A stretch of DNA of 32,000 nucleotides from Candidatus Saccharibacteria bacterium oral taxon 488 (GTDB taxonomy: Bacteria; Patescibacteriota; Saccharimonadia; Saccharimonadales; Saccharimonadaceae): contig CP047921.1 of assembly GCA_010202845.1 (NCBI GenBank), positions 690,001-722,000 of the forward strand. Reading direction: 5' to 3'. Positions 9,801-30,129 of this stretch are shown one piece after another; positions within the stretch are counted from its first letter, which is position 1, and each line of letters starts with the position of its first letter. Position numbers and translations under genes: made by a program. The notes beneath the pieces were generated by a model. That model had not been told where the DNA came from and made no database searches. It saw nothing but the letters and a program-made list of their open reading frames with translations.

Positions 9801-9829
9801 TTGCATAATTATAAATTATATTTTATAAT
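9801..9829 (+). promoter_or_regulatory. Promoter of the metzincin-like gene: TTGCAT-17-TATAAT, 10 nt to ATG 9840
   Basis: -35 at 9801-9806, -10 at 9824-9829. No SD. Confidence 0.65.
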
Positions 9830-9839
9830 TGTTATCGTT

Positions 9840-11177
9840 ATGAGCGAAAAGAGCAGCATGTCGACTAGTGATAAACCGAAAGAACTGCCATTACGAGTAA
9901 GAGTTCCGTGTGTAATACTAGGCGGGATAATAGGAGGGGTGACGGGTTTTGTGGGTTATAACCATATAGCTCATCGTAGCCCTAAACCTCAACCTGCAAC
10001 TGCAACCGCAATAATAACCGAAACCGTTCAGCCGGCTGAGCCGCTAGAGACACAGGGGCCATTTAGCCTGCCTGATATTCAACCTGTTATTATCACCGAC
10101 TCCTCAACAACAGAACAACATGTTGCCGAAGTAAGCAAACGCGCAAGAGCAGAACTTGATAGAGCCGAAGACATCCTAGCTACCACCATGGACGTCTCCA
10201 AGAGCACCGTTTATGAAGCAGTAACCATGCCAATGGATGAACAGCCAATTGATCCAGAAACAAAAAAGCCCTGCCCCCCTGTCGAAAAGATACGAGAAGT
10301 AGCCAATAAAATCCCCTCCCTCGGCGGTACAGCGATTCGCTATTTTATCCTGCCACCTCATTTATGCAACAACAATCAGTTCGGCGCCTACGCCCAATAT
10401 CACACACGAGACATCGTCACAAGATCAGACAATATGAATATCATCAACTCTGGCGTTATTATGCACGAAGCCGGACATTTGTTTGGACTGCCACACGTAA
10501 GAAGGTTGAGAATTGAACACCCAGACCTAAAAGATGAGGAATGGCATAATATCAAACCAGAAGATTACGATATTACCAATGATTTGCGAAATGGTTACGG
10601 TCAATTCCCTATGCAAGCAAATGGCAGCATCGATCCAGCATCCGGGAAAACAAGTGTCATGGGCTATCATTACGAAATTAACAGCTGGTGTCTTACGCAT
10701 GGAAGTTGTACTCACGTCTATAATGGACCCGAAAGAAACAAGCTCGACGGTGAAAAATTCCCGATCCGTGACGTTGACCCAGCAACATTGCGAGAGACTC
10801 CCGTTGACCTCGTAGTGTCTCCTGAGGCGCGCAATATTCAAGGTATCCGCGTTCCTGTGCCAGAAGATCATCCAATCCGCCACATTCGTGGCTGCGAGTC
10901 AGTCACCCATATTATCATTGGCGTTGATCACTTATATTATTCGGCCATCAACGGTAGCCCAGGCTTCACAACGTATGTTGTTGCCGTTGATCAGGACGAT
11001 AACCTCATTGAGATAGACGCACCGAAATTTGAAGAGTTGGCGTACTCGCCAACAGTATCAGATGAATTATTTGGTGAAAAACCGCAATATATCTACAATG
11101 ATAGTATGCTAGGCATCAGCGTTACCGCACGGCTTGTCAATAAGCAGGCTGTGCTGCGTATGACAGCGTTTAAGTGA
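9840..11177 (+). CDS. Membrane-anchored metzincin-like zinc metallopeptidase (hypothetical)
   Basis: 'HEAGHLFGLPH' = HEXXHXXGXXH at 10464-10496. Met-turn-like 'SVMGY' at 10653-10667. N-terminal TM 'VPCVILGGIIGGVTGFVGY'. Start placed at ATG 9840, 10 nt after a TTGCAT-17-TATAAT promoter. Confidence 0.65.
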   Translation: MSEKSSMSTSDKPKELPLRVRVPCVILGGIIGGVTGFVGYNHIAHRSPKPQPATATAIITETVQPAEPLETQGPFSLPDIQPVIITDSSTTEQHVAEVSKRARAELDRAEDILATTMDVSKSTVYEAVTMPMDEQPIDPETKKPCPPVEKIREVANKIPSLGGTAIRYFILPPHLCNNNQFGAYAQYHTRDIVTRSDNMNIINSGVIMHEAGHLFGLPHVRRLRIEHPDLKDEEWHNIKPEDYDITNDLRNGYGQFPMQANGSIDPASGKTSVMGYHYEINSWCLTHGSCTHVYNGPERNKLDGEKFPIRDVDPATLRETPVDLVVSPEARNIQGIRVPVPEDHPIRHIRGCESVTHIIIGVDHLYYSAINGSPGFTTYVVAVDQDDNLIEIDAPKFEELAYSPTVSDELFGEKPQYIYNDSMLGISVTARLVNKQAVLRMTAFK

Positions 11178-14744: not shown

Positions 14745-16574
14745 TTATCGCTTGCCGCGCGTGATGGCGTGTTTTAGCCAGGCAGCAGCTCGGCCGATTT
14801 CCCAGCGCCACTGCCAGCCAGCATAGCCAACCGCCAGCAGGCTGACGCCGCCGAGCACCCACCAGCCCCACATCGCACCCGTCACCTGCTTGACCTGCTC
14901 CGGCGCAAAGCCAGTTTTCGGTGCAGTAGCCAGCGCGACCTTGCGGCAGCGGCGGGTCTTTGGATTGCGCTCAAATCCTTCTGGACAATCTTTTAGGATG
15001 TCATCGGCGGCAGCGATTTTCTTGCAGCGGCCAGTTGCTGGGTTACGAAATTGACCATCAGGACATGGCTTTAACACTTTGGCGGCGGCTGAGGCGATTG
15101 AGCGACAGCGACCCGTCGCCTCGCTGCGATAATACCCTTCTTTACACGGCGTTACAGTCTTTGCTGCTTCGATTTTCCGACAGCGACGCGTTTCAGGATG
15201 CCGATATTGACCAATTGGACACGGCGCTAACACATCAGGCACAGCAGGTGGCACCGAAATCTTCACACATTTACCCAGTGCGTTACGCTCATAGCCATTC
15301 TGGCAGTCCGCATATTCCTTAAACACATTGGCAGCATTTTCAGTCACCGCAAACGTTTGCTTCCATTCCCCGTTAAATAAACTCCACGACGAGTCTTTGG
15401 CTAGACCGGCAAACGACGTCTGGTCAATTTCATTGCCGCTCTCGTCCAGCGCGTACACTTCACCGCCACCAGTTTTTGTTAATTTGAGGTTTGTCTCTGC
15501 CAGCCGAATGACATGCAGTGCCCCGGCCGCCAGCTCAATACTCCTGAACGTGTGCGTTGTGTCCTTATTCTTGCCTCGACCTTTCACGAGAATGGTGCAG
15601 CCCGTAAGGTCGAGATCGCTGATCCCGGCGTTAATAATCTCGATAAACGGCGCGTCGACATTGGTCGCGATCTCATGTAATTTCAAGCCACTGCAGCGAT
15701 TGATCGGTGGCGCCGGATCAACTGGCGGACGCGGTTCATCAGGCTCAGTACACGCCGGCAGTTCACGCAGGCGCGGCGCCTCGCCGACCGAAAAATCGCT
15801 AGCGTTATTATTCGTATCAGTCACCACGCCATTTATTTGGCAGCGCCAGGCGTGTAGCTTATCGTCCAGATTGATCGGGCTGCCTTCGCGCTCTGACGCC
15901 GCGCCCCAACCAACCAGATCCGACACCTGCCCATCACTCATCACCAATTTGACAGAACCGCCGGTTTTTGCCAGTACTTTCTTGCTATCAAACCGCAGGT
16001 CAGCCTGCTCATCGGTTAGCCGGCTATCACCGACCACCAACGCCCCGCCCGCCGGCACCATTAGGTCAGTCGATATTGTTTTAAGCACTGTCACATGCCC
16101 CTTTTGGTTAACATACTGCAGCGTCCAGCCAGCGATATTGACTGGCCCTGGCGACGGATTGTAGAGTTCGACGTACGCGCCGCGCGCTGTATCGAGGCCA
16201 ATTTTAGTGATCAAGAGTTTAGCCGATGTACGAGCCGCAGCTGGTGGTGCAGGAGGTTCGGAAGGCGTTGGCTTGGCCGGTGCGGGTGTCGATGGAGTCG
16301 TGGTCGGCGTTGACGGAGCGGGCGTAGACGTAGACGTACCGCCAGAAGCTGTGTCCGGCGTGGTCGCTACTGGGGCTAGTGGCTTGGTCGGAGCTGCCGA
16401 GCTGGGTACTGGATTGGCTGGACGCGGCGCGGGCGTATCCGTTGGCGCAACCGATGTCGAGCCACCAGCAGGAGGTGCAGCCTCTGGCGGGGAGTCGCTT
16501 GCAAACGCCACCACCGGCTGAAACACCAGCGCAATTATCGTTGACATAAGTAGTAGGCGGGTCAAAACCTTCAT
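14745..16574 (-). CDS. Secreted, C-terminally membrane-anchored surface protein with two lamin-tail domains (LTD) and five Cys-pair repeats
   Basis: Signal peptide '...VVAFA|SD', a P/T/A/S linker, LTD-like 'LLITKIG...AYVELYNPSPGPVNIAGWTLQY' and 'LKLHEIATNVDAPFIEIINAGISDLDLTGCTILV', 5 Cys repeats, TM 'WGWWVLGGVSLLAVGYAGW' and a basic tail. GGGAG SD. Confidence 0.75.
   Translation of the reverse strand: MKVLTRLLLMSTIIALVFQPVVAFASDSPPEAAPPAGGSTSVAPTDTPAPRPANPVPSSAAPTKPLAPVATTPDTASGGTSTSTPAPSTPTTTPSTPAPAKPTPSEPPAPPAAARTSAKLLITKIGLDTARGAYVELYNPSPGPVNIAGWTLQYVNQKGHVTVLKTISTDLMVPAGGALVVGDSRLTDEQADLRFDSKKVLAKTGGSVKLVMSDGQVSDLVGWGAASEREGSPINLDDKLHAWRCQINGVVTDTNNNASDFSVGEAPRLRELPACTEPDEPRPPVDPAPPINRCSGLKLHEIATNVDAPFIEIINAGISDLDLTGCTILVKGRGKNKDTTHTFRSIELAAGALHVIRLAETNLKLTKTGGGEVYALDESGNEIDQTSFAGLAKDSSWSLFNGEWKQTFAVTENAANVFKEYADCQNGYERNALGKCVKISVPPAVPDVLAPCPIGQYRHPETRRCRKIEAAKTVTPCKEGYYRSEATGRCRSIASAAAKVLKPCPDGQFRNPATGRCKKIAAADDILKDCPEGFERNPKTRRCRKVALATAPKTGFAPEQVKQVTGAMWGWWVLGGVSLLAVGYAGWQWRWEIGRAAAWLKHAITRGKR
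14913..15305 (-). repeat. Five tandem 25-28-aa Cys-pair repeats in the LTD protein (C-x2-G-x2-R-x5-6-C-[RKV]-[KS]-[IV])
   Basis: CQNGYERNALGKCVKI / CPIGQYRHPETRRCRKI / CKEGYYRSEATGRCRSI / CPDGQFRNPATGRCKKI / CPEGFERNPKTRRCRKV, each followed by a short Ala/Pro linker. Confidence 0.85.
16224..16496 (-). repeat. Pro/Thr/Ala/Ser-rich low-complexity linker (about 90 aa) of the LTD surface protein
   Basis: 'SPPEAAPPAGGSTSVAPTDTPAPRPANPVPSSAAPTKPLAPVATTPDTASGGTSTSTPAPSTPTTTPSTPAPAKPTPSEPPAPPAAA'. Confidence 0.85.
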
Positions 16575-20320: not shown

Positions 20321-20349
20321 ATTTTATCACAGAGAAGCGGCATTTTCAA
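20321..20349 (-). promoter_or_regulatory. Promoter of tRNA-Lys: TTGAAA-17-TGaTAAAAT
   Basis: The reverse complement reads TTGAAA (20349-20344), a 17-nt spacer and TAAAAT (20326-20321), about 40 nt upstream of the mature tRNA 5' end. It overlaps the stop of the upstream membrane-protein gene. Confidence 0.6.
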
Positions 20350-20837
20350 CGCTTTGTTTTCTTGGAGGCGGGCGCCTTGGCCTTGAGTGGCACACTCATA
20401 TCAAGCAGCCCCGCTACCAGCCCAACGGTCGCCGCATAGCGCCACCAGTCGCTCAGCAATTTGTATGTCTTCATCGCCTCCGCATCCAAGCTCATAAACT
20501 TGCCCAGTGGCCGCACCAGCATCGCCGCTGCTAGCACGCCGACTAGCACTGCCGAGATTAGCCGCAGTAACTTGCCAGGCCCCTTTGGCCCAGTAACTAA
20601 TAATAGCACCAGCGGCCCCACCGTCAAGATAATCGTCGCCACGACACCATTCGGTAGCCCTGCTACGTTACTGACGCCCAGCCCGCCGATCACCCCGGCC
20701 AGCCACTCCGCCCACAATTCCGCCAGCAGTGCGCTGGCCGCCAGTGACAGCGCCAACACGCCAAATCGCCGATTCAACACGAACACTAGTGCCGTCACCG
20801 CCACGGCCACGCCGCCAAACAACAACACCATGCTCAT
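20346..20837 (-). CDS. Hypothetical integral membrane protein (about 4 TM helices)
   Basis: 163-aa hydrophobic ORF. ATGA 4-nt overlap with the upstream DUF192 gene stop. Lys-rich C-terminus. No family recognised. Confidence 0.6.
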   Translation of the reverse strand: MSMVLLFGGVAVAVTALVFVLNRRFGVLALSLAASALLAELWAEWLAGVIGGLGVSNVAGLPNGVVATIILTVGPLVLLLVTGPKGPGKLLRLISAVLVGVLAAAMLVRPLGKFMSLDAEAMKTYKLLSDWWRYAATVGLVAGLLDMSVPLKAKAPASKKTKR

Positions 20838-21322
20838 CGCTGCGCCCCCGCACTAAACCGCGCAGTGACGCCCGGCTTGATACCATGCTCCTTGGCACTA
20901 CCCGCCGGCAGCTCTAACACGTACCGCGCCGGAACTGGCGTGTGATATACCTCATGCGGCTCATTGTCAGGCCAGACATCACGCTTGACGTGCACGACCT
21001 TTTTCTTGGCATCTAGCCAGATAATATCAATCGGGACGCGCATACCCTTCATCCAAATTGGTATATCACCGTCTTTCTCGGCCACGAACAACATCCCCTC
21101 GCTCTTACCCAGCTCCTGCCAACCGCCCAAGCCTCGCGCCCGCGTCTCGTCCGTATCAGCGACCTCCACTCGAAATGTACCCTTGCCGATGTCAACAGTC
21201 GTGTACGTTTTATTCATCTGGCGCGCCACCGCCCATACGCCGTAGCCGATCCCGGCCAACACGCCGAGCACGATCACCCAAACGATGATCCGCTGCACTA
21301 TCGACACCGACTTCGCATTCAT
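20834..21322 (-). CDS. DUF192-domain protein with N-terminal membrane anchor
   Basis: 'ETRARGLGGWQELGKSEGMLFV...IPIWMKGMRVPIDIIWLD' matches the DUF192 pattern (GL..R....GMLF...WM.....P.D..). TGcTATAAT ends 6 nt upstream of the ATG. Confidence 0.75.
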   Translation of the reverse strand: MNAKSVSIVQRIIVWVIVLGVLAGIGYGVWAVARQMNKTYTTVDIGKGTFRVEVADTDETRARGLGGWQELGKSEGMLFVAEKDGDIPIWMKGMRVPIDIIWLDAKKKVVHVKRDVWPDNEPHEVYHTPVPARYVLELPAGSAKEHGIKPGVTARFSAGAQR

Positions 21323-21346: not shown

Positions 21347-22264
21347 TCAGGCGCCGACTTTATCTTTTTTGTTACCGCGCTTGGCGTTGCGATTAATATA
21401 ATCAATAATCCGACCAGCCACATTGCGGCCCGTCACCTTTTCGATGCCAAATCCTGGGCTGGCGTTCACTTCCAACACCAACGCGCCACGACTTGAGCGC
21501 ATAAAATCAACGCCGGCTACCACCAAGCCCATCGCCTTGGCGGCTTTGACGCACATTTTTTGCTCATCAGGCGTCAACTTGATAGCCGTCCCCTCGCCAC
21601 CTTTGTGTAAATTACTGCGAAAATCATCATCCAAGCTCTGCCGCTTCATACTGGCCACCACTTGACTACCGACCACAAACGCCCGAATATCGGTGCCGGC
21701 CGACTCTTTGATAAATTCCTGCAATAGCACGTTTGTGCCGTCAGAATTGCTGAGATAAAACGCCTGCATGACCGACTTGGCGGCCTTGATCGTCTCCGCC
21801 AGCACTACACCGTTGCCATGCGTGCCGCGCGCCAACTTGATGATCGCTGGCGTACCGCCAATCTCGTCTAGTAGCACGTCAATATCGGTTTCGTTGCGTG
21901 AGAACACTGTCTTTGGAATTGCTACGCCAGCCCGCGCTAGTAACTGCGTCGAGCGCAGTTTATCCCGCGCCCGCGTAATGGCGATTGACCGATTCATAAA
22001 AAACGCCTGCGGATTCGCCATCTCCAGCTGTCGCAATACCGCCGTCCCGTAGCGCGTCATATAACTAGCAATCCGCGGGATGAACACATCGAAATTATCA
22101 ACCTCCTTACCGCGATAAATAACCTTCGGATGCTGCTCGTCAATTGACACGTAGCAGTTTTTATACTTGATAACCTTAATTTGATGACCGCGTTTTTCGG
22201 CCTCTTCTCTGAGGCGGAGGGTGGAGTAGTTAATATTACCGTTACTGAGGATTGCAATTTTCAT
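21347..22264 (-). CDS. rimK: RimK-type ATP-grasp alpha-L-glutamate ligase
   Basis: Collinear with E. coli RimK as I recall it: 'MKIAILS', 'YGTAVLRQLEM', 'ARDKLRSTQLLARAGV', 'GVVLAET', 'DIRAFVVG', 'DFRSNLHKGG', 'VAGVDFMRSSRGALVLEVNASPG'. Confidence 0.9.
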   Translation of the reverse strand: MKIAILSNGNINYSTLRLREEAEKRGHQIKVIKYKNCYVSIDEQHPKVIYRGKEVDNFDVFIPRIASYMTRYGTAVLRQLEMANPQAFFMNRSIAITRARDKLRSTQLLARAGVAIPKTVFSRNETDIDVLLDEIGGTPAIIKLARGTHGNGVVLAETIKAAKSVMQAFYLSNSDGTNVLLQEFIKESAGTDIRAFVVGSQVVASMKRQSLDDDFRSNLHKGGEGTAIKLTPDEQKMCVKAAKAMGLVVAGVDFMRSSRGALVLEVNASPGFGIEKVTGRNVAGRIIDYINRNAKRGNKKDKVGA

Positions 22265-22266
22265 GA

Positions 22267-22776
22267 CTACTTATCCTTTGGCTTATGGTATTTTTTATAA
22301 AATTTGTGGGGATTCTTTGCCAGCTCCTTATTCAGTACTTTGTTATCGGTAGCATATTTGTATCGATGCGCCGCATCACCCTCACGCACATCAACCAAGA
22401 ACTTGCCCGCAACAGTACGACGTCCTATTAGAACTGGGTAGAGATTACCAGAACGATCCGAGAGGTTAAATAGTGCTTTAATTTTACGCCCCTTGATAGT
22501 CACGGTAAAATGTGTTCTATAGCGAATTTGCTCATGTCCAGATGAGCTGCGTACCATTGCTACAGTGAAATCCGTTCGCTTGAAAATCTTCCCGTTATAG
22601 TAAGGCGAGCCTTTGCCGAATAGGGCAAACTTTAACACACCATCTTTATCAACACGAATATTGCTCGCCCATACCGATGAGCTGTCTGCACCAGTATCAA
22701 CTTTGGCCGATATGCCAATAGCCCGCCGACCAAAATCAACACGGACATTTCGTCCAATAACCTGCCTAGCCAACAT
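22267..22776 (-). CDS. Retropepsin-like aspartic protease of the RimK-associated family (PF05618-type, RimB-like)
   Basis: 'AKVDTGADSSSVWA' with D-T-G-A at 22687-22698. Size and position (2 nt upstream of rimK) fit the family. ATG 22776 overlaps the upstream gene by 11 nt. Confidence 0.7.
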   Translation of the reverse strand: MLARQVIGRNVRVDFGRRAIGISAKVDTGADSSSVWASNIRVDKDGVLKFALFGKGSPYYNGKIFKRTDFTVAMVRSSSGHEQIRYRTHFTVTIKGRKIKALFNLSDRSGNLYPVLIGRRTVAGKFLVDVREGDAAHRYKYATDNKVLNKELAKNPHKFYKKYHKPKDK

Positions 22777-23683
22777 CAATACCTACCATTTCTAGAAGCA
22801 TCTCACTATATTTTCTCACTTTCTCATCCTGAAACGCACCAGAGGAAACCTGCGGTGCATTATTGACCTCCAGCAAATACGACTTATTGTTGGTACTGTC
22901 AAACATCACGTCAACACCCGCAACTTGCAGCCTCGCGATAGATGCAGCTTTAACGCAGACATCAATAACTTCGGGCGAAACCGACTCGATCGGTACGACC
23001 TGTGCGACACCACCTTGAGAAGTGTTGTTAAGATGTGAGCCGTCGACACCCTTGCGTTCAATTACTAAAACTGGCTTACTGTTAAAAACCAACACCCGCA
23101 AATCGCCAGAGTTTGGAATAAACTCCTGCAAGACAAATCGTTTGTCTGGGTACTGCTTTTGGATATCGCTAATCTCTGCGACCGACTCAACTAAAAAATT
23201 TGAACGACCCTTTGAGCCTTCATTGTCTTTCATAATTGCCTTTCCGCCAAACTCTGGAAAGCGTCGGATCATTTCATCTATATTACCATAAAAGGTGTGT
23301 GGCCAATTTTTAATACCATTAAACCACAGTAAAAATTGTGTACTTATCTTATTATCCAGCATTAGCCGATTCAAGTACTCGTCTGTATAACGAATGCCAA
23401 AATACTCACAATACTGCACAATAGCCTGAGCTTCATTCGCCATCTTACCAATATGACGAATGACAACCAAATCAAAATCACGAAGATCAAACTTCTTCTG
23501 AGAGTGATAGATATTAATTGCATATGCACTTAACTCAAAAAATAGCTCAGATATTTCACAGTGTTCAATCTCAACACTCTCCCCGATACTATTTTGTACA
23601 CGGCTAGCAAAACCTCCAGCCTTGCCCCTTGCTTCTTCGCTCACCGCTCGTGCTATCAGTAAGACTTTCTTTTTACTCTTCAT
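22766..23683 (-). CDS. Divergent RimK-like ATP-grasp ligase (second paralog, unknown specificity)
   Basis: ATP-grasp landmarks: 'DNKISTQFLL', 'GGKAIMKDNEGSKGRSNFLV', 'FVLQEFIPNSGDLRVLVF', 'HLNNTSQGG', 'VAGVDVMFDSTNNKSYLLEVNNAPQV'. Alignable with the adjacent RimK but clearly divergent. Confidence 0.75.
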   Translation of the reverse strand: MKSKKKVLLIARAVSEEARGKAGGFASRVQNSIGESVEIEHCEISELFFELSAYAINIYHSQKKFDLRDFDLVVIRHIGKMANEAQAIVQYCEYFGIRYTDEYLNRLMLDNKISTQFLLWFNGIKNWPHTFYGNIDEMIRRFPEFGGKAIMKDNEGSKGRSNFLVESVAEISDIQKQYPDKRFVLQEFIPNSGDLRVLVFNSKPVLVIERKGVDGSHLNNTSQGGVAQVVPIESVSPEVIDVCVKAASIARLQVAGVDVMFDSTNNKSYLLEVNNAPQVSSGAFQDEKVRKYSEMLLEMVGIDVG

Positions 23684-23725
23684 TTACAGGATCCCTTTCT
23701 GTGGCTTTTTAATAAATTATATGGG

Positions 23726-25042
23726 TTATTGTATGTCGTAGGAAATATGGTCTGGATTTGTTGGATCATAACGTACGCTAAGAATATGACGCAATTTTTC
23801 TAGCCTTTCTTCTTCTGGAAGTCGGGCAATATCATTCAACCAGCCAGCGGCTTTTTGTGCACCCACAAAATATGCACTATCACGCGTATCAATTGCGCCG
23901 CCGCGACGGGTACGATGAACCTGACGTTGAGCATTTGAGCGAGCCTTATCAATATCTACCACACCACCATTTTGCTCCATCAACAACACTTCACGCCGCC
24001 AAAGAATTTCGAATGTCTCACGATAATTACGCGGATCACCGCCTCGATCGGCACCTGCCTGCAGACCAATTGATAAATAATACTGCTTGCCGGGAACACG
24101 TTTTTGACCCGTAATAACCTGTTCTAGACACGTTGCCAAACCCTCTTCAAAATCTAGCCCACCAGGACCACTTCCCCGACCACCATGAACCACCGCCTCA
24201 TGAAATGCAACACCTATAGCGGCTAGCTCATTAGGAAAATCTGCCCGGTTCTCACCATAGTATACCGTTTTCTCACGAATACTTGTGTGTGCTGATTTAC
24301 CCGAATCTAGTTGTACACTCCATTCTTCTGGCAACCCAGCGACCTGTATCACTGCTTTACAAACATCAATAGCCTTATCCACGGGCACCGGCTCTTTAGA
24401 TGCCTTATCAATCATGGAGCCAATCTCTGGATATATATTTCTTAAGTCATCATGAATAATTTTCATAGTTTCATCATTTAGCCCAAGCACCTCATGGCCA
24501 CCCTCATCAATAGGCTGTTTTTCAAGAAGACTCAACAGTTCAGTCGCCTCTTTACGCTGCGAATTACTCACCAAATCAATTAACTCGTTTACCATCGCAG
24601 CAAAAGCCGGTTTATCAATACCTCCCATAATATCTAGCGACAACTCTGCAGCTAAACGGCGGTGCTCAAGGCAATCTGATGATGCTACCGACCCAAGAGC
24701 CAACTGCAACTCCTCGTAACGAAACAGTTCGCCCGTCTTGCGAATGATTTTATCTATTAGTTCTTCATGTGTCTGTGATCGATCCTCAGATGGAGTGCGC
24801 ATTAGTTCATTAAGGAGGCCCTCATAGAGCTCAATCGTCTCTTTAACCGTCTCTGTGTTGTGTCGTCCGTCCATCATCTGCCGTGGTTCGGTTAAGTCTG
24901 GATTATTAAGAAATTCATGAATTCTATTCTGACGTTCAGTAGCACTAGTGTTCAGGTTAAGGTAATGCTCATAGCCAGGTGTCGCTGTAAAAGGATTTTG
25001 GTCAAATATCTGTTTTTTAGAATCTATTGTACTAGTTACCAT
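23726..25042 (-). CDS. DUF1704/MATCAP-like metallocarboxypeptidase (QEGLA-motif family), tentative
   Basis: 'FHEAVVH' (HEXXXH, 24185-24202) followed 13 aa later by 'EEGLA' (24134-24148). 438 aa from ATG 25042. TTGTAT-17-TATTAT promoter ends 7 nt upstream. Confidence 0.6.
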   Translation of the reverse strand: MVTSTIDSKKQIFDQNPFTATPGYEHYLNLNTSATERQNRIHEFLNNPDLTEPRQMMDGRHNTETVKETIELYEGLLNELMRTPSEDRSQTHEELIDKIIRKTGELFRYEELQLALGSVASSDCLEHRRLAAELSLDIMGGIDKPAFAAMVNELIDLVSNSQRKEATELLSLLEKQPIDEGGHEVLGLNDETMKIIHDDLRNIYPEIGSMIDKASKEPVPVDKAIDVCKAVIQVAGLPEEWSVQLDSGKSAHTSIREKTVYYGENRADFPNELAAIGVAFHEAVVHGGRGSGPGGLDFEEGLATCLEQVITGQKRVPGKQYYLSIGLQAGADRGGDPRNYRETFEILWRREVLLMEQNGGVVDIDKARSNAQRQVHRTRRGGAIDTRDSAYFVGAQKAAGWLNDIARLPEEERLEKLRHILSVRYDPTNPDHISYDIQ

Positions 25043-25049
25043 AGCTAAT

Positions 25050-25078
25050 ATAATAACATAAATCTTATAATAATACAA
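25050..25078 (-). promoter_or_regulatory. Promoter of the MATCAP-like/ATP-grasp/protease/rimK cassette: TTGTAT-17-TATTAT, 7 nt to ATG 25042
   Basis: The reverse complement reads TTGTAT (25078-25073), a 17-nt spacer and TATTAT (25055-25050). No SD. Confidence 0.55.
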
Positions 25079-25204
25079 TATAGTAGTCCTGGCCGAACAA
25101 CCCCCTCCTCACACCGTCAAACCACCCTAGCAATCGCCCCTACGTTTTGATTAGCTTAGTCGTCATACAACAAACGTCGACGACGTTGTAATAACACTCT
25201 TAAG

Positions 25205-28200
25205 TTATTTCTGTTTACCCCCTTGTCTTCTCGCTACCACAACCACCACTGCCGTGATAATCGATAGTCCGGCCAGAATAGCCAGCGCATAAGCATAGCC
25301 TGACAGCAGATAAATTAAAGCCAACGTCACGCCGACAGCGCCCCAGATAGTAATCAGTCGCCTGCCGAGCGCCAAACCGATGATAACCATCAGCGAATGC
25401 TCGACTAAGAACAATATCTTCATAACATTGTCCCCCGCTAGCGCCAGGACAAGGGTTGATAAACTAAATACAGCGAGCGCTAGTGCTAAGTGCGCAATGG
25501 TAGATATCTGAGTATATCCTAGCCAGCGCCAGGACATCACCGCCCCCGACAAAATTGCCACTGAACAGAGATATGGCATCACGATACTATGAATCGGTAC
25601 AATTAGCATATGAACCGTAAACAGAATACCACACAGCACCAAAAGAACACCCGAGTCGAAGTATAGAAGACTCTTCTTCGGCAACCCCTCAGCTATTAGG
25701 GCGCTGCCATTGACCGCCCACATTAGTGTTACTAGCAGTACCGCCTCCGTTGCGACACTGGCCGGCATAGCCATCAGCAGTAAAGTCATCGACCAGCCGA
25801 TAGCACTCCAAAATGATGCATAATACCAATAAACTGATAATTTCTTGGTTCGCGCAGTCACGGCGGCGCCATAAAACACCGCAAAGATAATTAGTGAAAC
25901 GATCGACATAAACTCAAGCTTAACGCCGAGCCATTGTGCAGTTAAGTAGAATAACAATACCAAACTTGGATGCGCCAATATCGCCATCGGCCGCCAATCC
26001 TGCTTGGCATACACTACCATATAAAGTGCCGCGACAGCTGCCAACCAGCCCAAGATTTTGAACGGTAATCCATACGTCGTCAATAGATTTATCATCGGTA
26101 ATATCACCGCTGGTACCGTAGCAGCCAGCAGAGTCATATCGCTAGTGATTGACGCTCGCTTATTCATCGCTAACGACCAATATACTACCCCGAAGCCGAC
26201 GAGCACCACCCAAGCAGTGATAGTGAAATTGTCGCTTAGCGGCACGCGTAGCCAATGCAAGAACAGCAACACCAAAGCAATTGTCGCCAAGTATGCTCCG
26301 CCCAGATAACCATCCTCACGCCGCCGATAAAACGCATAGTACAGCAGCGCTACTAACGGCAGCCAAACCGCCGGATGAATAGACGAAAAGATGATCAAGA
26401 TAGCCGCTCCAATAGCAGAATATAACAACAATTCGCGGCACTTAACCGCCGCCTCTTTGCGGTAATTATACAGCCACTCTACCAATAGTAGCAACGACAA
26501 GCCGTTCAGCCACGCCATCAAAATGGCAATATCTTCGCCAGCAATCTTGAAATACGAAGCTATCAGCAGTGCCATCAGAAGTAGAGAAGCATGAATACCA
26601 ATCACTAGACCGTAAGCTTTCTCACGCCACGCAGCGATACCCATGATGACAGCAGCAACCGCCACCGAATCTGACAGATACAGCATGCCTTCTCCTGCTG
26701 GATAAGCAGTCAAAAAAGCTAAGGCTATAAACACTGTCATTAACCACCAAGCGGCCGCAGCGCCGTACACTAGTATTGCTTGACTTTTAGTAATATTTGG
26801 GCGCTTCAAAACCAGTAATCGGCAGACAACCGGCAGGAAAGTCATAAGCATAAAGATAGAGTAATGTGTATGCAAGGTTGTTATGGGATCGAGGCTAAAT
26901 AGCCTGACGCCAGCCGGCACTAACAAAATTCCAGACATTACTACCATGCCGCCAAAACGGGCGCGGCGCAGCAATGAAAGCGCCATAAAACTCACTACCG
27001 AAACCATACTCAACAGGATAAATATGATCATATCTCTTAGCGGACTTTCGACGCCAGCTATAGTCGATACAGCAGCCAGCGACGCAACGAAACTAATCCA
27101 CAACACTATTTCGTGCTGCTTGTCGGGCTGCTTTTGGGCATACATCGACCTGATAGACCAAATTATATTACCAAGTGCCGCCACACCCAGCGCTATACCT
27201 GTGACCAGACCATCATTATTTGACAGATACATAGTAAAACTAGCAGTCGCCGCCATCAGCAGCACGCGCGCCGTCGTTAGTTCATACGTGCGCATATCCT
27301 TTGATTTTTCAACAAAAGCAACAGTAAAATAATATATAACGCTGATGAGCAGCAGCATGCTGACGTCAAGCGTTCCCATATGCACCGACGAACCGATAGC
27401 GAGAAGCAAAGTGGACGGGACGATAAACGGATTAACCAGCGTCAACGGCTCGGTGAATTGGCGCGGAAAACGATTAGAAAAATACGCAGCCAAGGTCATC
27501 AGGCATCCGAACAATAGCACCGCAGCATAATACCACACCAACTGAGCATGCATAACAGCCGGCAAGCTGGTCGTCATCGTAAACATCGACAGCAGCGAAA
27601 TATAGGCGAGCGGTTGGCTATTGAGCCTGACTGTAGCATCCACGCATAAGAAAGTGCCGATGAAGGAAGTGGCAAGCCAACACAGCGCTGGATCAATCCC
27701 CAAAAGCAAGTGCATGCTCCAGCCGCCGATCGGCACAGCAGCCAGCGCCGTACCAATAAACGCCGTTGAGGCCGGCTTTAAGATCGGTAATCTAGCGTAT
27801 AACACCTGGCCAGTAACATAATAGACAAAAATAAACAGCCAGACCAAACTAAACCTGAGCTGCGCCGAAAGTTCAATCGTTTGTGCCAATAATAATATAC
27901 CGGCGGTTAGCAATAATGATGCCGTATAGAGCGCCACATTGATGGTAGTTTGACGATTTTTCTCTTTTTCTTTATTGCTGACAGGGGATAGCCGCTCGAC
28001 AATCTGTGTCTTTTCGTCGGGAATATTAGTCTTTCCTTCAATTGGCGCGGCATCAGTAGGTGGCGCAGCATCAGGCTCTTCCTCTTCGTCGCCAATTAGC
28101 ACAAGACCAGTAGACTGCGAAGCTGCAGCCTGATTCTCGGTAATAAGCTTGGCTTGACCGTCGCTACCTTCAATTTTCGCACGGCCATTCTGCGCATCGC

Positions 28201-28318
28201 ACACGCCGTCCCAATAACCGCGCTGATAATCCTCAGATTGACGAGACAGCCGATTACCGCCTCCCTGCGCCACCTTAATTATCACGATGATAATCACTAA
28301 CAGAAAAATTAATTCCAT
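25205..28318 (-). CDS. Very large polytopic membrane protein (1037 aa, on the order of 25-30 TM helices), unknown function
   Basis: N-terminal TM, then a ~120-aa soluble segment ('DYQRGYWDGVCDAQNGR', acidic 'GDEEEEPD'), then almost continuous hydrophobic helices to the C-terminus. AAGGGGA SD and TGcTATACT upstream. Confidence 0.7.
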   Translation of the reverse strand: MELIFLLVIIIVIIKVAQGGGNRLSRQSEDYQRGYWDGVCDAQNGRAKIEGSDGQAKLITENQAAASQSTGLVLIGDEEEEPDAAPPTDAAPIEGKTNIPDEKTQIVERLSPVSNKEKEKNRQTTINVALYTASLLLTAGILLLAQTIELSAQLRFSLVWLFIFVYYVTGQVLYARLPILKPASTAFIGTALAAVPIGGWSMHLLLGIDPALCWLATSFIGTFLCVDATVRLNSQPLAYISLLSMFTMTTSLPAVMHAQLVWYYAAVLLFGCLMTLAAYFSNRFPRQFTEPLTLVNPFIVPSTLLLAIGSSVHMGTLDVSMLLLISVIYYFTVAFVEKSKDMRTYELTTARVLLMAATASFTMYLSNNDGLVTGIALGVAALGNIIWSIRSMYAQKQPDKQHEIVLWISFVASLAAVSTIAGVESPLRDMIIFILLSMVSVVSFMALSLLRRARFGGMVVMSGILLVPAGVRLFSLDPITTLHTHYSIFMLMTFLPVVCRLLVLKRPNITKSQAILVYGAAAAWWLMTVFIALAFLTAYPAGEGMLYLSDSVAVAAVIMGIAAWREKAYGLVIGIHASLLLMALLIASYFKIAGEDIAILMAWLNGLSLLLLVEWLYNYRKEAAVKCRELLLYSAIGAAILIIFSSIHPAVWLPLVALLYYAFYRRREDGYLGGAYLATIALVLLFLHWLRVPLSDNFTITAWVVLVGFGVVYWSLAMNKRASITSDMTLLAATVPAVILPMINLLTTYGLPFKILGWLAAVAALYMVVYAKQDWRPMAILAHPSLVLLFYLTAQWLGVKLEFMSIVSLIIFAVFYGAAVTARTKKLSVYWYYASFWSAIGWSMTLLLMAMPASVATEAVLLVTLMWAVNGSALIAEGLPKKSLLYFDSGVLLVLCGILFTVHMLIVPIHSIVMPYLCSVAILSGAVMSWRWLGYTQISTIAHLALALAVFSLSTLVLALAGDNVMKILFLVEHSLMVIIGLALGRRLITIWGAVGVTLALIYLLSGYAYALAILAGLSIITAVVVVVARRQGGKQK

Positions 28319-29577: not shown

Positions 29578-30129
29578 ATGAAACGAACAGCAATTATCAA
29601 TTCAGAAATCAAGGCCCGGTGCGCGGATCAAGAGTCGGTGCGCCACTATCTACGTGAGCACGGCGCGGACTTTAAGGGGACCGACCATCAAATTGACACG
29701 TATTTTCATGTACCCGAGGGGCGCCTGAAACTACGTCAAGGGCCGATCGAAAATAACCTTATCTTTTATCAGCGGGCCGATACCAATGGGCCAAAACAAT
29801 CGACTATCAACTTATCACCCGTGGCGCCGGACTCAACTATTGGCGAGGTGCTAACAGCGGCGCTTGGTGTGCGTGTGGTTGTTGATAAGCAGCGCGAGAT
29901 TTACTTCATCGACAATGTCAAGTTTCATATCGACACCGTTAAGGGTCTCGGGAATTTTGTCGAAATTGAAGCTATCGACACCGACGGTAAACGAAACGCC
30001 GAGGAGCTGGAGCAGCAATGCTCACACTACATGCGTGAACTTGGTATCAAGGATACGGATTTAGTGGTTGGCTCGTATAGTGATTTGCTGGAGGGTGCAG
30101 CTCTTTCCGAGTTAGCCGCAAACAATTGA
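29578..30129 (+). CDS. CYTH-domain protein / class IV (CyaB-like) adenylate cyclase
   Basis: 'NSEIKARC', 'HQIDTYFHVPEGRLKLRQ', 'LIFYQR', 'KQREIYFIDNVKFHIDTVKGLGNFVEIEA' fit the CyaB/CYTH pattern as I know it. GGAGG SD and TGcTATACT upstream. Confidence 0.7.
   Translation: MKRTAIINSEIKARCADQESVRHYLREHGADFKGTDHQIDTYFHVPEGRLKLRQGPIENNLIFYQRADTNGPKQSTINLSPVAPDSTIGEVLTAALGVRVVVDKQREIYFIDNVKFHIDTVKGLGNFVEIEAIDTDGKRNAEELEQQCSHYMRELGIKDTDLVVGSYSDLLEGAALSELAANN

Follow-up and report, generated by a model that had tools for sequence, protein, structure and literature searches.

A divergent MATCAP/DUF1704-like peptidase gene in a conserved Rim-type gene cluster of Saccharibacteria

Among the known systems closest to the protein described here are the human peptidases MATCAP1/TMCP1 (KIAA0895L; 7z5g, 7z5h, 7z6s) and TMCP2 (KIAA0895), both belonging to family PF08014. 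They are metallocarboxypeptidases that take tyrosine or glutamate off the acidic tails of tubulin, TMCP2 acting as a deglutamylase (PMC10499314). The glutamate of the HExxxH motif is catalytic, while for TMCP1 that of the EEG motif was proposed to coordinate the metal as its third ligand (PMC10499314). In human MATCAP the catalytic residue is E281 (PMC10499314; E281Q in PMC13269789), and in TMCP2 the two glutamates, E329 and E364, are spaced by 35 positions (PMC10499314). In this work we analyzed a putative bacterial relative of these enzymes, encoded on the minus strand of a 32,000-nucleotide (nt) stretch of the genome of Candidatus Saccharibacteria bacterium oral taxon 488 (CP047921.1, positions 690,001 to 722,000; this whole stretch is hereafter called the window), together with its neighbors, among them genes for RimK-type ligases and a RimB-like protease. 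A preliminary description of the locus, made from the sequence, had proposed a MATCAP/DUF1704-like peptidase from two motifs, HEAVVH and EEGLA.

The second system of interest is that of the Rim proteins. RimK adds alpha-linked glutamate residues to ribosomal protein S6 at its C-terminus, RimB, a retropepsin-like endopeptidase, takes glutamate off polyglutamylated RpsF, and RimBK hybrids exist as well (PMC11957791). It was also proposed earlier that ATP-grasp 'peptide-tag' ligases of bacteria have tag-reversing peptidases as partners, in that case transglutaminase-like ones, and that TTL-type ligases are of bacterial origin (PMC3495828). Our search of the Rim literature found no paper linking RimK with MATCAP, TMCP1 or KIAA0895L, and no MATCAP-like component is described there.

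Relationship of the protein to the MATCAP/DUF1704 superfamily

The open reading frame (ORF) of the peptidase was taken to start at an ATG rather than at an alternative, longer TTG start at position 25078, because the homologues begin at the ATG position in an alignment of 30 sequences. The 438-amino-acid (aa) product has neither a signal peptide nor a transmembrane segment and is therefore predicted to be cytoplasmic. Translation of the ORF confirmed both motifs, and H286 and E299 are indeed 13 positions apart, with 12 residues between the motifs. Shuffling of the protein gave HExxxH in 3.4% of cases and HExxxH with a downstream EG in 0.9%; at such rates the motif by itself is weak, merely suggestive evidence, and it is the conservation across relatives that gives it significance.

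A search of 5.8 billion proteins revealed 29 homologues with identity levels from 98 to 34%, one of which carries the name Candidatus Saccharibacteria and all others of which are unannotated. Together with the query they form the narrow-family alignment (A1, 30 sequences). Six loci were found in a scan of 185,579 species, one genome each (of which five carry the label Saccharibacteria/Nanosynbacter and the sixth that of an 'uncultured bacterium'), and a metagenome scan with the A1 alignment yielded four more; on the contig of a metagenome-assembled genome the peptidase is essentially identical to that of the window and the neighboring genes are 89-99% identical. An exhaustive HMMER search of 1.84 billion cluster representatives with the A1 profile retrieved 985 of them at E<=1e-3, of which 587 also pass E<=1e-10. 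From these matches we sampled a second alignment (A2, 75 sequences, identity down to 17-20%), and a third one (A3) comprises 39 distant, PF08014-positive relatives; a word-index search with A3 returned five proteins. The plasmids of PLSDB gave no match by tblastn with a PF08014-positive relative.

Among the positions invariant in A1 are H281, E282, H286, R289, E300 and G301 and, in an Arg-rich C-terminal block, R377, R380, G381, G382, D385, D388 and Y391. In A2 the invariant columns are reduced to five, H281, E282, H286, E300 and Y391, while E299, G301, R377, R380, G381 and D388 are conserved in at least 90% of sequences. H281 and H286 are predicted to be metal ligands and E282 the catalytic base, all on the active-site helix (residues 272-287), with E300 on the next helix (296-311) as the predicted third ligand. 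The Arg/Asp/Tyr block R377-Y391, conserved in the family, is a candidate for binding of the substrate carboxylate and stabilization of the transition state. Nine arginines are invariant in the narrow family, which would be compatible with an acidic substrate but is no more than suggestive.

The relationship to MATCAP/DUF1704 was revealed through a chain of intermediate sequences and profiles. The most distant member of the narrow family, P0028 (35% identical to the query), matches PF08014 with 48.6 bits (cutoff 27) over profile positions 113-321 of 365, and the five family members tested against TIGR02421, the 'QEGLA' model, match it weakly, with 15-37 bits. In the wider sample, PF08014 is matched by 61 of the 75 relatives in A2 (best E 4e-25), whereas TIGR02421 is weakly matched by 36 of the 39 distant relatives in A3; E-values of the query's relatives against this model range from 1e-3 to 2e-23. 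Alignment of A1 with A3 by hhalign (probability 100, E 2.2e-57) covers 385 columns, starting at residue 40 and reaching the C-terminus. Finally, the A2 profile reaches human MATCAP (KIAA0895L, 7z5g/7z5h) with E 7.3e-7. In this register HExxxH corresponds to HEIGTH, EEGl to TEEGLA, RifRG to RAKRG and KDlaYfnG to KDQVYLDG, so that H281, H286 and E300 fall on the three metal-ligand positions of human MATCAP, E282 on its catalytic base and the R377-Y391 block on RAKRGQ...KDQVYLDG. One distant relative bears the NCBI name 'tyrosine/phenylalanine carboxypeptidase domain-containing protein'. Searches of PDB sequences by phmmer with the query or P0028, or with the narrow-family profile, found nothing relevant, only chance matches to enterotoxin C3 and acetylornithine deacetylase.

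Judged from these alignments, homology to MATCAP/DUF1704 is secure but transitive, and the protein belongs to the superfamily as a highly divergent member, within a Saccharibacteria clade. Its subclade has drifted below the detection limits of the family models, and this divergence explains why Pfam and NCBIfam annotation leaves it 'hypothetical'. Thus, the assignment made in the preliminary description is supported, although the profile search suggested there succeeds with the family and joint profiles and not with the query itself (see below).

The comparison with human MATCAP reveals both common and distinct features. The HExxxH motif with its catalytic glutamate, the EEGLA third ligand, R..RG and D..Y..G follow each other in the same order and can be aligned. 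On the other hand, the N-terminal ~230 residues of the query are all-helical and not alignable to MATCAP, the microtubule-binding extensions are missing, the host has no tubulin as a substrate, and 17 residues are missing from the ligand loop. Counted from the catalytic to the ligand glutamate, human MATCAP has a distance of 35 and most bacterial relatives one of ~31 (30-32), whereas the sister clade has 21 and the window protein, like the three relatives closest to it, has 18. The alignments show that the loop between the two helices was shortened by stepwise deletion (~31 to 21 to 18), in agreement with the earlier impression of a short motif spacing and a distinct subfamily. The protein also differs from the TIGR02421 'QEGLA' proteins of the same superfamily: members of its family reach at most ~37 bits against an equivalog cutoff of 338.65, its own motif reads EEGLA, and it is ~70 residues longer.

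The AlphaFold2 model built from the family alignment has a mean predicted local distance difference test (pLDDT) score of 89 and a predicted template modeling score (pTM) of 0.84. It is all-helical to residue 235, in line with the notion that the ~280 residues preceding the motif are devoid of recognizable features (no Pfam or NCBIfam match), and continues with a three-stranded sheet at residues 242-263 (strands 242-246, 251-254 and 259-263), the helix 272-287 with HEAVVH and the helix 296-311 with EEGLA. The modeled order of sheet, active-site helix and glutamate helix is that of gluzincins (zincin clan MA(E)). In a Foldseek search of the PDB the full-length model has human apo MATCAP 7z5g_D as its top match (probability 0.97), followed by M3 and M32 peptidases. 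With a separate model of the catalytic half (residues 215-438, pLDDT 89.5), the minigluzincin jannalysin superposes at 2.7 A in 69 columns (probability 0.99), and M32 carboxypeptidases are matched with TMq 0.46-0.50. The putative ligands H281, H286 and E300 lie on successive predicted helices, as in gluzincins, and together with the minigluzincin superposition this lends indirect support to a common metal site. The structural matches are thus gluzincin peptidases and not an unrelated fold; the models support a gluzincin peptidase fold, and their support for MATCAP specifically is weak. It should be mentioned that M32 (Taq-type) carboxypeptidases and the archaeal minigluzincins (selecase, jannalysin), which share the gluzincin core and give the best superpositions of the catalytic half, use HExxH, unlike the query, and have no detectable sequence relationship to it (E-values >0.1).

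Association with RimK-type ligases and RimB-like proteases

The most interesting aspect of the peptidase gene is its conserved Rim context. The gene order on the minus strand of the window is dnaK, dnaJ, an ORF for a 1037-aa membrane protein, the peptidase, ATP-grasp2 (a second, divergent RimK-family ligase), the RimB-like protein, RimK, a DUF192 protein, a 163-aa membrane protein and comEC. The peptidase gene is the first in a tightly packed co-directional cluster: ATP-grasp2 begins 42 nt downstream of it, the start of the RimB-like gene overlaps the end of ATP-grasp2, and only 2 nt separate the RimB-like gene from rimK. The locus contains a Rim cluster in the sense that a gene for a RimK-family ligase adjoins one for a RimB-type retropepsin-like peptidase.

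We compared the gene context in 13 further distinct lineages. RimB-like and RimK genes adjoin the peptidase gene in L001, L004, L010, L011, L014, L015, L016, L017, L022 and L023, and two ATP-grasp genes lie near it in L024; in total, RimB-like and/or RimK-type neighbors are present in the window and in 11 further lineages. One locus (L013) was uninformative since it ends at the peptidase gene. Saccharibacteria lineages retain the core of MATCAP-like, RimB-like and RimK genes even though identity between their peptidases is as low as ~20%, and the adjacency outlasts rearrangement, namely divergent orientation in L015, an extra inserted ATP-grasp gene in L016 and relocation of the cluster in L024. 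Stop and start codons often overlap in the core, and the overlap of the peptidase gene with the RimB-like gene is 4-8 nt long in L022 and L023. As a component of the Rim cluster, the MATCAP-like gene is conserved.

The position of ATP-grasp2 is more variable: (i) it is a separate gene upstream of the RimB-like gene in the window, L014, L016, L017 and L019; (ii) in L001, L004, L010 and L011 it forms the C-terminal part of a fusion with the RimB-like domain; and (iii) it is absent from L015, L022 and L023. As many as three ATP-grasp genes were found in L010. In the window the two overlapping genes (22267..23683, minus strand) run in the order opposite to that of the fused form, ATP-grasp and then RimB-like. 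We considered whether the split pair is a frameshifted version of the fused gene and rejected this, since the domains come in reverse order and the split arrangement is found again in L014, L016, L017 and L019.

The cluster resembles the Pseudomonas RimABK system in the adjacency of RimK and RimB-like genes, and the RimB-like/ATP-grasp fusions of sister lineages match the RimBK hybrids (PMC11957791). It differs in that no RimA (EAL) gene is present at the window cluster, and in that the fused ATP-grasp domain is a divergent paralogue, a canonical RimK being present besides.

Genes of the QEGLA group adjoin genes of ATP-grasp ligases (COG0189) in Vibrionaceae too. Among the family labels used there is COG3930, which we take to correspond to DUF1704. 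In Vibrio vulnificus VV2_1203 (COG3930) adjoins the ligase gene VV2_1204 (COG0189; PMC3091676). In Photobacterium damselae the QEGLA gene RS17025 adjoins RS17020, an ATP-grasp gene annotated as 'GshB'; both are induced 27-38-fold at low salt, and rimK 52-fold (PMC10308900). These pairs provide independent support for the association of ATP-grasp and QEGLA genes, although the partner there is a GshB-like ligase and not RimK with a RimB-like protein.

Possible function of the peptidase

We infer that the protein is probably a cytoplasmic gluzincin metallocarboxypeptidase that trims acidic C-terminal tails made by a ligase. By analogy with the action of MATCAP/TMCP1/TMCP2 on tubulin, it would be an exo-carboxypeptidase whose substrate is an acidic C-terminal tail, and the neighboring RimK-type ligases would write this tail; the ATP-grasp partners that TTL/TTLL represent for tubulin would here be genomic neighbors. 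The candidate tail may consist of poly-alpha-glutamate, attached to ribosomal protein S6 or to some other target, or else be a residue added by ATP-grasp2. Alongside the endo-acting RimB-like protease, the peptidase may then serve as a complementary, second 'eraser' or as an editor of tail length.

The protein adds a new and strongly divergent member to a known family that is uncharacterized in bacteria: bacterial DUF1704/MATCAP-like proteins are numerous, and a literature search found neither biochemical characterization nor activity data for any of them. The conserved association of its gene with those of RimK and a RimB-like protease offers a concrete substrate hypothesis, namely ligase-made glutamate tails. 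If this is true, the Rim system of ribosome modification would gain a third enzymatic component, there would be a prokaryotic precedent for the way in which ligase and carboxypeptidase are combined in the tyrosination and glutamylation cycle of tubulin, and a small, loop-minimized enzyme of MATCAP type would become available for structural and mechanistic work.

Several observations weigh against this interpretation, in addition to the lack of activity data in the literature. The query itself has no match at E<=1 in Pfam or NCBIfam, staying below the gathering score of PF08014 (27 bits) and the equivalog cutoff of TIGR02421, and does not match MATCAP sequences directly. The Foldseek match of the full-length model to MATCAP is marginal (E 6.8e-3, TM score 0.22-0.27), and MATCAP is not among the matches of the 215-438 model, which are generic gluzincins. 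The conserved downstream DUF192 and 163-aa proteins are membrane-anchored and fit poorly with purely cytosolic tail editing. The gene for S6 (rpsF), sought for the C-terminal sequence of its product, is not within the window. As for the gene context, the relative in L012 has no Rim neighbors, all syntenic loci appear to be from Saccharibacteria, and the dnaK-dnaJ and comEC-yebC-ruvCAB neighbors are conserved as well. Because unrelated neighbors are also conserved, the adjacency may in part be frozen synteny, and the phylogenetic independence of the loci is limited since all of them share this backbone.

The latter points bear on the strongest alternative, in which a MATCAP-family peptidase has a general housekeeping or nutritional role, for example in an auxotrophic episymbiont's trimming of peptides from import or turnover, and lies next to rimK and rimB by inheritance, with no functional link. 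Conservation of dnaK-dnaJ upstream and of comEC-yebC-ruvCAB downstream indicates that gene order is generally stable in the class, and the L012 relative does without Rim neighbors. We nevertheless regard this explanation as rather improbable, since the adjacency persists in the loci with broken order (L015, L016 and L024), the peptidase and RimB-like genes overlap at their stop and start codons, and the proteobacterial QEGLA genes likewise lie beside ATP-grasp ligases.

It is still less likely, in our opinion, that the enzyme acts before the ligases as a priming carboxypeptidase, removing the native C-terminal residue(s) of a target and exposing glutamate for extension by RimK or ATP-grasp2. 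Such a role would agree with the conversion of ...EEY to ...EE and further by MATCAP/TMCP1 (PMC10499314), with the first position of the peptidase gene in the cluster, and with the fact that RimB already supplies glutamate removal (PMC11957791). However, no target with a fitting C-terminus was found, the window lacks rpsF, and sequence features do not separate priming from erasing.

A non-proteolytic regulator using the zincin scaffold for binding only would be in keeping with the annotation of proteobacterial relatives as 'flavohemoglobin expression-modulating' (the NCBIfam name of TIGR02421) and with the literature search, which found no published peptidase activity of bacterial members; against it, the H-E-H-E catalytic set is invariant down to 17-20% identity, which is the signature of an active enzyme, and we consider this possibility very unlikely. 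Least credible of all is an unrelated zincin that acquired HExxxH and EEG by convergence: the missing direct family match of the query and the generic gluzincins found in the domain-only fold search are outweighed by a continuous chain of significant profile matches and by the alignment of four separate motifs, whose order is that of human MATCAP.

Returning to tail trimming as the favored function, it can be tentatively hypothesized that Saccharibacteria possess a compact module for the C-terminal tails of proteins, in which one or more RimK-type ligases write, the RimB-like endopeptidase cuts and the MATCAP-family exopeptidase trims residue by residue. Taken with the ATP-grasp/QEGLA pairs of Vibrionaceae, this would make the pairing of ATP-grasp tail ligases and MATCAP-type carboxypeptidases ancient and prokaryotic, and the eukaryotic TTL/TTLL-MATCAP cycle of tubulin might descend from it or reuse it; we put this broader scenario forward as a possibility that is rather less likely than the proposed activity itself.

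Features of the cluster and its surroundings

Coordinates of the features discussed are collected in Table 1.

Table 1. Features of the window and of related loci (positions refer to the window unless a locus is named).
Feature	Position	Strand	Remarks
MATCAP-like peptidase gene	23726..25042	(-)	ATG start, TAA stop, 438 aa; ORF and translation
HEAVVH motif, H281-E282-A-V-V-H286	24185..24202	(-)	Codons CAT GAG GCG GTG GTT CAT at 24202-24185
EEGLA motif, E299-E300-G-L-A (residues 299-303)	24134..24148	(-)	Codons GAA GAG GGT TTG GCA at 24148-24134
Arg/Asp/Tyr block, R377-T-R-R380-G-G-A-I-D385-T-R-D388-S-A-Y391	23870..23914	(-)	Conserved in family
ATP-grasp2, second divergent RimK-family ATP-grasp ligase	22766..23683	(-)	305 aa; PF08443 3.5e-16
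RimB-like retropepsin-type aspartic peptidase	22267..22779	(-)	PF05618 44.6 bits (cutoff 27); DTG in VDTGADSS
RimK, ribosomal protein S6/alpha-L-glutamate ligase type ATP-grasp	21347..22264	(-)	TIGR00768 254.7 bits (cutoff 143.4)
DUF192 protein	20834..21322	(-)	N-terminal membrane anchor; PF02643 9.4e-29
Small polytopic membrane protein	20346..20837	(-)	163 aa; translation; conserved downstream neighbor
CYTH-domain ORF between dnaK and dnaJ	29578..30129	(+)	
Highly polytopic membrane ORF	25205..28318	(-)	1037 aa; between dnaJ and peptidase gene
Lamin Tail Domain protein	14745..16574	(-)	609 aa; PF00932 1e-18
Protein with gametolysin M11 peptidase match	9801..11177	(+)	458 aa; sub-threshold, 4e-4
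Fused RimB-like (N-terminal) and ATP-grasp (C-terminal) protein	L001:9389-10702, L004:6188-7510		437-440 aa
Peptidase_C26/GATase gene	L003:7242-7838, L004:3981-4577, L005:144-740		Another glutamyl-peptide enzyme nearby
GGDEF (diguanylate cyclase) gene	L023:5159-5764	(-)	Directly upstream of MATCAP-like/RimB-like/RimK trio

RimK of the window, besides its match to TIGR00768, reaches 324.2 bits with NF007764 (cutoff 331) and matches PF08443 and PF18030. ATP-grasp2 is 27% identical to the adjacent RimK; it has 85.6 bits with TIGR00768 (below the cutoff of 143) and a weak match to TTL. The RimB-like protein matches NF052264 and NF052261 weakly, below their equivalog cutoffs (35 vs 200 bits for the RimB equivalog). 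No signal above that of shuffled sequences was found in the promoter and terminator scan.

The DUF192 gene is kept downstream in L001, L004, L010, L015-L017 and L022. In the window it is overlapped by 4 nt by the gene of the 163-aa membrane protein, which has no Pfam match and ends in a Lys-rich C-terminus. We also considered the DUF192 and 163-aa proteins as acidic-tailed substrates and rejected them, as they are membrane proteins with basic C-termini.

In the lineage of P0028 a Peptidase_C26/GATase gene of gamma-glutamyl-hydrolase type is located between dnaJ and the MATCAP-like gene. The GGDEF gene of L023 recalls the cyclic di-GMP control of Pseudomonas RimABK via RimA. In the window, the ORF between dnaJ and the peptidase gene has no Pfam or NCBIfam match; it is present only in the closest relatives (L006, L007, L008, L018 and L019) and absent from this place in more distant Saccharibacteria loci. 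The GC content is 0.41-0.46 in the MATCAP-like, ATP-grasp2 and RimB-like genes (window positions 22000..26000) and higher, 0.51-0.62, in the flanks (rimK, the DUF192 gene, comEC, dnaJ and dnaK). Apart from the genes for the Lamin Tail Domain protein and the 458-aa protein, the remaining genes of the window are housekeeping ones: aspS, ruvABC, a class A penicillin-binding protein gene, yebC, comEC, dnaJ and dnaK.

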